A DNA stretch of 64,000 nt from Escherichia coli. GTDB taxonomy: Bacteria > Pseudomonadota > Gammaproteobacteria > Enterobacterales > Enterobacteriaceae. Under the pieces are notes generated by a model. The model was given only the letters and a program-made list of their open reading frames with translations, did no database searches and was not told the DNA's origin. The DNA is taken from assembly GCF_003334765.1 (NCBI RefSeq), contig NZ_QOWT01000008.1; one strand, 5' to 3'. The position numbers and the translations under genes are program-made. Shown one piece after another: positions 34,534 through 34,628 of this stretch (position 1 is the first letter of the stretch; the number at the start of each line of letters is the position of its first letter).

Positions 34534-34628
34534 TTTGCGTCTGAACAAACCGCCGCCGCGAAAAAACACGTAAAATAGCGCTCAACAATGCCACGGATTG
34601 CGTGGCATTATTATTTTCAGGAGGAACA

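Follow-up and report, generated by a model that had tools for sequence, protein, structure and literature searches.

A probable leaky intrinsic terminator at the head of the yfeX leader in Escherichia coli

The window, the whole stretch of 64,000 nt of E. coli chromosomal DNA analysed here, contains the gene order amiA / ypeA-yfeZ-yfeY-yfeX / yfeW, as read from the open reading frame list and E. coli annotation. The yfeY-yfeX locus is carried, and so annotated, by 5426 of 5426 complete E. coli genomes. The last nucleotide of the yfeY stop codon is 34533 and the yfeX ATG occupies 34629-34631, leaving a yfeY-yfeX spacer of 95 nt. Published coordinates from strain MG1655 were converted by the relation MG1655 = 2585174 - window position, obtained from the MG1655 annotation and from a 61-nt sequence printed with published RNA 3' ends, which is identical to window 34564-34624. 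Over 33901-35600 the window differs from MG1655 and so derives from a different strain of E. coli; the spacer is the same in both. The features at the locus are as follows.

33958-34533, plus strand: yfeY coding sequence, an RpoE-regulated lipoprotein (open reading frame list and matching E. coli annotations)
34571-34576, plus strand: -10 hexamer of the yfeX promoter, reading TAAAAT here and TAnAAT in relatives (conservation; 8 nt upstream of the start site at MG1655 2550590)
34584, plus strand: transcription start site of the monocistronic yfeX mRNA, MG1655 2550590, minus strand (SMRT-Cappable-seq, PMC6131387; coordinate mapping)
34587-34595, plus strand: 5' arm of the hairpin, AATGCCACG (sequence, repeat search, terminator scan, fold and compensatory changes)
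34596-34600, plus strand: loop GATTG (sequence; length and sequence differ among relatives)
34601-34609, plus strand: 3' arm of the hairpin, CGTGGCATT, the perfect 9-bp complement (sequence, repeat search, terminator scan, fold and alignment)
34610-34618, plus strand: U-rich tail ATTATTTTC, 6 of 9 T (sequence and terminator scan; CTTTTTTTC in most relatives)
34613-34614, plus strand: in vivo RNA 3' ends, MG1655 2550561 and 2550560, minus strand (Term-seq, PMC7815308 Supplementary files 1 and 3)
34619-34624, plus strand: yfeX Shine-Dalgarno sequence AGGAGG (sequence; AGGAG core invariant in the alignment)
34629-35528, plus strand: yfeX coding sequence, a DyP-type porphyrinogen peroxidase (open reading frame list and E. 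coli annotation)

A preliminary description of this DNA noted a perfect 9-bp repeat, AATGCCACG-GATTG-CGTGGCATT, at 34587-34609, ending 20 nt before the yfeX ATG and followed by ATTATTTTC and then AGGAGG. Sequence and repeat search bear out each of these elements, with the tail at 34610-34618, the Shine-Dalgarno sequence at 34619-34624 and a distance of 9 nt between stem and AGGAGG. The repeat search returns the same inverted repeat, which can be lengthened to 12 nt at 92%. The window has 9 loci at which a perfect inverted repeat reaches 9 bp or more around a loop of 3-8 nt, compared with 1.3 +/- 1.1 in first-order Markov simulations, and most of the other loci of this kind also precede T-runs. 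For the 35-nt RNA covering 34584-34618 the folding energy is -14.3 kcal/mol (z = -4.98), a value that none of 200 shuffled sequences equals. The number of repeats relative to simulation, together with the fold z-score, places the repeat beyond chance.

The stem is of the kind found in intrinsic terminators, with 9 perfect base pairs, 5 of them G-C, closed by a 5-nt loop. It is followed by the 6 T in 9 of ATTATTTTC, and at 56 of 80 related loci the corresponding 9 positions contain 6-8 T. In a terminator consensus scan of 32800-36000 the hairpin ranks top among terminator-like sites. The minimum free energy and centroid folds, of long RNAs as well as of those defined by the transcription start site, retain the hairpin and leave the Shine-Dalgarno sequence and AUG unpaired; in the latter RNAs the hairpin stands by itself. 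A terminator read from the minus strand was rejected: there is no T-run on that strand and no convergent gene, and the G·U pairs of related hairpins suit only the plus strand.

RNA ends at the site can be garnered from published genome-wide maps. The Term-seq study of Adams et al. 2021 lists dominant 3' ends at 2550560 (window 34614; 30,332 reads) for LB at OD 0.4 and at 2550561 (window 34613; 41,034 reads) on the sheet for a second growth condition (PMC7815308). These ends lie within the U-run, 4-5 nt past the formal end of the stem and about 8 nt past its G-C core. The same tables give an intrinsic-terminator score of 10.86 at the site, where a score of at least 3 predicts intrinsic termination, and a Rho score of 0.76 from cultures with and without bicyclomycin, with significant Rho termination entered as 'No' (PMC7815308). 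Published data therefore place the 3' end inside the U-tract and make it Rho independent. The end is called 'orphan' and 'upstream ORF -15/-16, yfeX', and like that of ispU it is retained in the 5'-UTR table of the authors, which required a dRNA-seq start site no more than 200 nt upstream and dropped 3' ends with a start site no more than 20 nt upstream (PMC7815308). That the end passed this filter agrees with a start site lying 30 nt before it. The text of Adams et al. 2021 leaves yfeX undiscussed (PMC7815308). The 2016 Cappable-seq supplements and TERMITe hold no entry for the site.

Full-length primary transcripts from the SMRT-Cappable-seq study of Yan et al. 2018 (PMC6131387 Supplementary Data 2) include both terminated and read-through forms. 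Transcript b2434|b2433|b2432 (ypeA-yfeZ-yfeY), starting at 2552167, ends before yfeX, while b2434|b2433|b2432|b2431 reads through from the same start into yfeX (PMC6131387). Transcripts of b2431 (yfeX) alone begin at 2550590 (window 34584) and at 2550555 (window 34619); the RegulonDB operon in the same table is yfeY-yfeX (PMC6131387). Gene yfeY is thus the final gene of the transcripts that stop at the hairpin. The suggestion, first made from the letters of the sequence, that the repeat is the yfeY terminator is upheld by these reads and by the Term-seq ends. The RNA-end mapping around 34530-34640 that the preliminary description proposed as a check is likewise supplied by these maps, which give 3' ends at 34613/34614 and starts at 34584 and 34619. 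A point against a terminator is that DirectRNA-seq coverage, taken over 800-nt windows, drops just from 121 to 88 at the site, although the downstream window is replenished by the yfeX promoter. On sigma-E induction, Bury-Moné et al. 2009 found yfeY up 3.3-fold, and a value for yfeX is absent (PMC2731931). An increase of yfeY with no reported value for yfeX fits a terminator between the two genes.

The start at 34584 lies 3 nt before the stem, so the hairpin is the 5'-proximal stem-loop of the yfeX mRNA and spans +4 to +26 of a 45-nt leader. The -10 hexamer is 10 nt from the stem and 58 nt from the ATG. Among 73 distinct Enterobacteriaceae sequences, 6 positions of the motif G-T-A-n-A-A-T show 90% conservation or more while its flanks vary, the hexamer appearing as TAAAAT, TACAAT, TATAAT or TAGAAT. 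A conserved box 8 nt before a published start site means that box and start site corroborate each other; neither the conserved -10 box nor the start site predicted from it figured in the earlier reading of this DNA. The Enterobacteriaceae alignment contains no conserved -35 element in the yfeX promoter region. By inspection, sigma-54, sigma-E and canonical -35 elements were also sought near the site and rejected, with no match at the correct spacing. The second published start, 34619, is the first A of AGGAGG and would give a leader of 10 nt. The E. coli T-run ATTATTAT itself resembles a -10 box; other genera have CTTTTTTT instead.

Conservation was assessed in one genome per species, giving 80 Enterobacteriaceae loci in which the protein identity of yfeX is 81-100%. 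The yfeY 3' end lies upstream in all 80, and their upstream regions yield 73 distinct aligned sequences. Four blocks are conserved in an otherwise variable spacer, namely G-TAnAAT, both stem arms, the T-run and AGGAGG. At 76 of 80 loci, 9-15 nt separate the -10 box from the stem, and at 54 of 80 the stem is followed by GGAG after 10-11 nt. Taking the 9 named pairs, 86.9% of alignment cells hold standard pairs, compared with 24-57% when the partners are slid by 1-3 columns. Cells in which both partners have changed number 17, compared with 5.2 +/- 2.2 in shuffles, and 0 of 500 shuffles reach 17, although such tests overstate significance among related sequences. Compensatory change is seen in four pairs, including A-U to G-C at columns 43/53 (e.g. 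L075/L080) and, at the innermost pair (columns 46/51), G-C to A-U or C-G in Klebsiella and relatives. Another 13 cells pair by G·U, at columns 40/56 (9 sequences) and 46/51 (4 sequences), and such pairs form in plus-strand RNA only. RNAalifold independently recovers 6 core pairs. The core GCCAC/GTGGC is near-invariant (71-72 of 73 sequences), and the covariation accordingly comes from few positions and clades. The comparison lends modest support to a conserved structured RNA whose pairing has survived through compensatory and G·U substitutions. Loop sequence varies freely, and loop length is 5 nt in Escherichia, 4 nt in 57 of 80 loci, and 3-7 nt overall.

A Klebsiella/Raoultella group (L036, L039, L046, L047, L049, L053, L055, L063 and L073) departs from this pattern about 60 nt upstream of yfeX. 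There the T-run has decayed to a sequence like TGTATCATT and the stem is shorter and weaker, with G·U pairs, and the -10 box is intact. As judged from these alignments, the terminator may have been weakened in this group and the 5' hairpin retained. Decay of the T-run with hairpin and -10 box both kept is a hint, on thin evidence, that termination is not the sole selected function.

The repeat is, very probably, an element of plus-strand RNA: a 9-bp stem-loop and U-rich run forming a leaky intrinsic terminator, and at the same time the first structure of the yfeX leader. Most ypeA-yfeZ-yfeY transcripts would end at the hairpin, 15-16 nt before the yfeX start codon, and the sigma-E-driven yfeY transcript presumably ends there too. 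A fraction of the upstream transcripts would pass the hairpin into yfeX. In E. coli an A interrupts the U-run (AUUAUUUUC), which counts against an efficient terminator; termination should accordingly be incomplete. The promoter of yfeX itself would fire 3 nt upstream of the stem, placing the hairpin at the head of the short yfeX leader. We infer that the hairpin partly uncouples yfeX from yfeY expression. On transcripts from the yfeX promoter it would shield the 5' end as a protective stem-loop, attenuate constitutively close to the promoter, or do both. As an attenuator it would stop a fixed share of yfeX-promoter polymerases after about 31 nt, and such attenuation would have to be constitutive because the 3 nt before the stem make an antiterminator impossible.

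It is conceivable, as a tentative further proposal, that this one hairpin is a selected module of dual use, ending the ypeA-yfeZ-yfeY and sigma-E yfeY transcripts and also capping the yfeX mRNA or attenuating it constitutively with release of an RNA of about 31 nt. The proposal follows from the yfeX -10 box being held 9-15 nt upstream of the hairpin across Enterobacteriaceae. Were it true, yfeX output would be set independently of the envelope-stress induction of yfeY.

A hairpin in the ompA 5' UTR was reportedly described by Emory, Bouvet and Belasco in 1992 as a 5'-terminal stabilising stem-loop. The yfeX hairpin resembles it in being stable, in a short leader and within about 3 nt of a triphosphate 5' end. 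The ompA hairpin differs in lacking a U-run and in being no terminator, and any role of the yfeX hairpin in mRNA half-life is presumptive. Position alone would suit such a role: a hairpin of this class is expected to start about 0-4 nt from the primary 5' end, and the E. coli stem follows 3 unpaired nt, its place in relatives being judged only from the -10-to-stem spacing. That the hairpin was selected mainly for protection from RNase E and RppH in the manner of ompA, the Term-seq ends being a by-product of weak termination or exonuclease trimming, nevertheless seems unlikely. With only 3 unpaired nt between 34584 and the -14.3 kcal/mol stem, a -10-to-stem spacing of 9-15 nt in nearly all of the 80 loci, and a Klebsiella/Raoultella hairpin that outlasts the T-run by means of G·U pairs, the reading has points in its favor. 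However, the 6-8 T in 9 that follow the stem in most genera are unneeded by a 5' stabiliser, the 3' ends lie within the U-run with a high intrinsic-terminator score and Rho independence, and transcripts from the ypeA promoter do end before yfeX. A regulated leader attenuator, in which a protein, sRNA or metabolite sets passage through the hairpin and makes yfeX expression conditional, is quite unlikely. It would accommodate the classification of the 3' end as yfeX 5' UTR by the Term-seq authors (PMC7815308), the coexistence of terminated and read-through forms, and the reported repression of yfeX by RybB and MicA, two sRNAs of the sigma-E response (Gogol et al. 2011, cited through PMC6694218). 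But 3 nt before the stem leave no room for an antiterminator, and longer upstream RNA also folds with the terminator in place. An Rfam search by E-value over 33000-36500 found no family at the hairpin or elsewhere in the yfeY-yfeX spacer, and the leader shows no alternative structure, leader peptide, or ligand- or protein-binding domain. The best RybB pairing falls in codons 5-7, off the hairpin, and is equalled by 23% of shuffled sRNAs; the MicA prediction is worse than shuffles, and the loop is not conserved. An sRNA target site in the yfeX 5' region, sought by duplex prediction with RybB and MicA sequences, was rejected as unsupported relative to shuffles.

The preliminary description had also offered a control hairpin in the yfeX leader and an operator for a dimeric regulator. 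Of the former, the location holds, since the stem occupies +4 to +26, and the mechanism does not. Translational control, by Shine-Dalgarno occlusion, by a standby site, or by an alternative duplex between the 5' arm and GUGGCAUU of codons 6-8, is very improbable, even with the end of the stem 9 nt from AGGAGG and the octamer GTGGCATT at 34645-34652 complementary to the 5' arm. In every fold the local hairpin persists, and AGGAGG and AUG, which are not part of it, stay single-stranded; control by occlusion is therefore unsupported. A local 9-bp stem with a 5-nt loop also beats an 8-bp pairing across a 50-nt loop, and the downstream octamer is not conserved, most genera having AGC GGC. The alternative pairing of the 5' arm with this octamer was accordingly rejected, being unconserved and not favored in folds. 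The octamer, which is that of the 3' arm, thus recurs 43 nt downstream, in yfeX codons 6-8, and contains GUGGC complementary to the RybB 5' seed; given AGC GGC in most other genera, its recurrence is probably a coincidence of coding sequence. That the repeat is instead a DNA operator, a repressor site for a dimeric transcription factor over +4 to +26 of the yfeX promoter, can hardly be credited. A perfect palindrome directly downstream of the start site with a strongly conserved half-site core, TGCCAC/GTGGCA, would suit such a protein, but half-site spacing is not kept (3-7 nt overall, with 4 the value at 57 of 80 loci and 5 that of Escherichia), and the loop between is free in sequence. Stems in several clades are kept by G·U, and the pairs in 13 cells would be mismatched in DNA and on the opposite strand. 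The conserved T-run, moreover, lies on the plus-strand side only, a real RNA 3' end maps to the site, and literature searches turned up no yfeX regulator. A layout with two CsrA sites was rejected as well, the loop GGA being absent in most relatives and a CsrA-yfeX link absent from the literature searched. In E. coli the layout consists of a loop GGA at 34595-34597 and the Shine-Dalgarno GGA at 34620-34622, 24 nt apart.

By its sequence and its mapped ends the site is a standard, ordinary Rho-independent terminator. It shares with canonical E. coli intrinsic terminators the G+C-containing 9-bp stem, short loop and U-rich tail, as well as a 3' end about 8 nt after the G-C core, insensitivity to bicyclomycin and partial read-through. 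It differs from them in the A-interrupted U-tract of E. coli and in lying downstream of the promoter of the next gene, so that transcripts from the yfeX promoter must also cross it. An intrinsic terminator between start site and start codon is likewise found in the trp and pyrBI leaders and in the ispU 5' UTR (Adams et al. 2021, PMC7815308). Unlike those, the yfeX leader has no leader peptide, antiterminator or ligand-binding structure. Both RNA ends already stand in public genome-wide tables, although the site is not known to have been treated individually. What is mildly new is the possible double use as terminator and 5' mRNA hairpin. The operon structure is also clarified, RegulonDB giving one yfeYX operon where the data above point to a leaky terminator and a separate yfeX promoter. 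This arrangement would explain sigma-E induction of yfeY with no reported rise of yfeX. As a compact case of a terminator inside the leader of the next gene, the site could be useful for work on 5'-end-dependent mRNA decay and for genetic insulator design.

Additional observations concern the surrounding sequence and individual genomes. An inverted repeat GGCGGCG/CGCCGCC, at 34523-34529 and 34551-34557, straddles the yfeY stop codon; it is confined to E. coli and one close Escherichia lineage (L005), with unrelated sequence in E. whittamii and in L004 (Escherichia). Between yfeX and yfeW, Rfam gives sub-threshold matches to the REP-derived naRNA4/CssrE and ES036/CssrF at 35581-35757, which is probably a REP/BIME cluster. 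One further Rfam match, to a lncRNA model inside ypeA, was taken as chance. Among the 5426 E. coli genomes, 49 have no contiguous match of at least 80% across the yfeY-yfeX spacer. In E. coli EC581 (L082, about 2635-3338) an IS200C lies inside the T-run, at about window 34615, between hairpin and Shine-Dalgarno sequence, and yfeX is there about 700 bp away from promoter and hairpin. Enterobacter sp. JUb54 (L057, about 1390-1470) carries an extra segment of about 30 nt with an inverted repeat, CTGAATACTTCGCG ... CGTGAAGTATGACGGG, between the -10 box and the hairpin. One metagenome-assembled genome labelled 'Citrobacter sp.' contributes two yfeX loci, one identical to that of E. coli and one of Citrobacter type (L002 and L014), and with two locus types the bin is probably mixed. 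The record labelled Chryseobacterium sp. 18061 (L038) has a yfeY-yfeX locus of enterobacterial type, suggestive of contamination or a wrong label.
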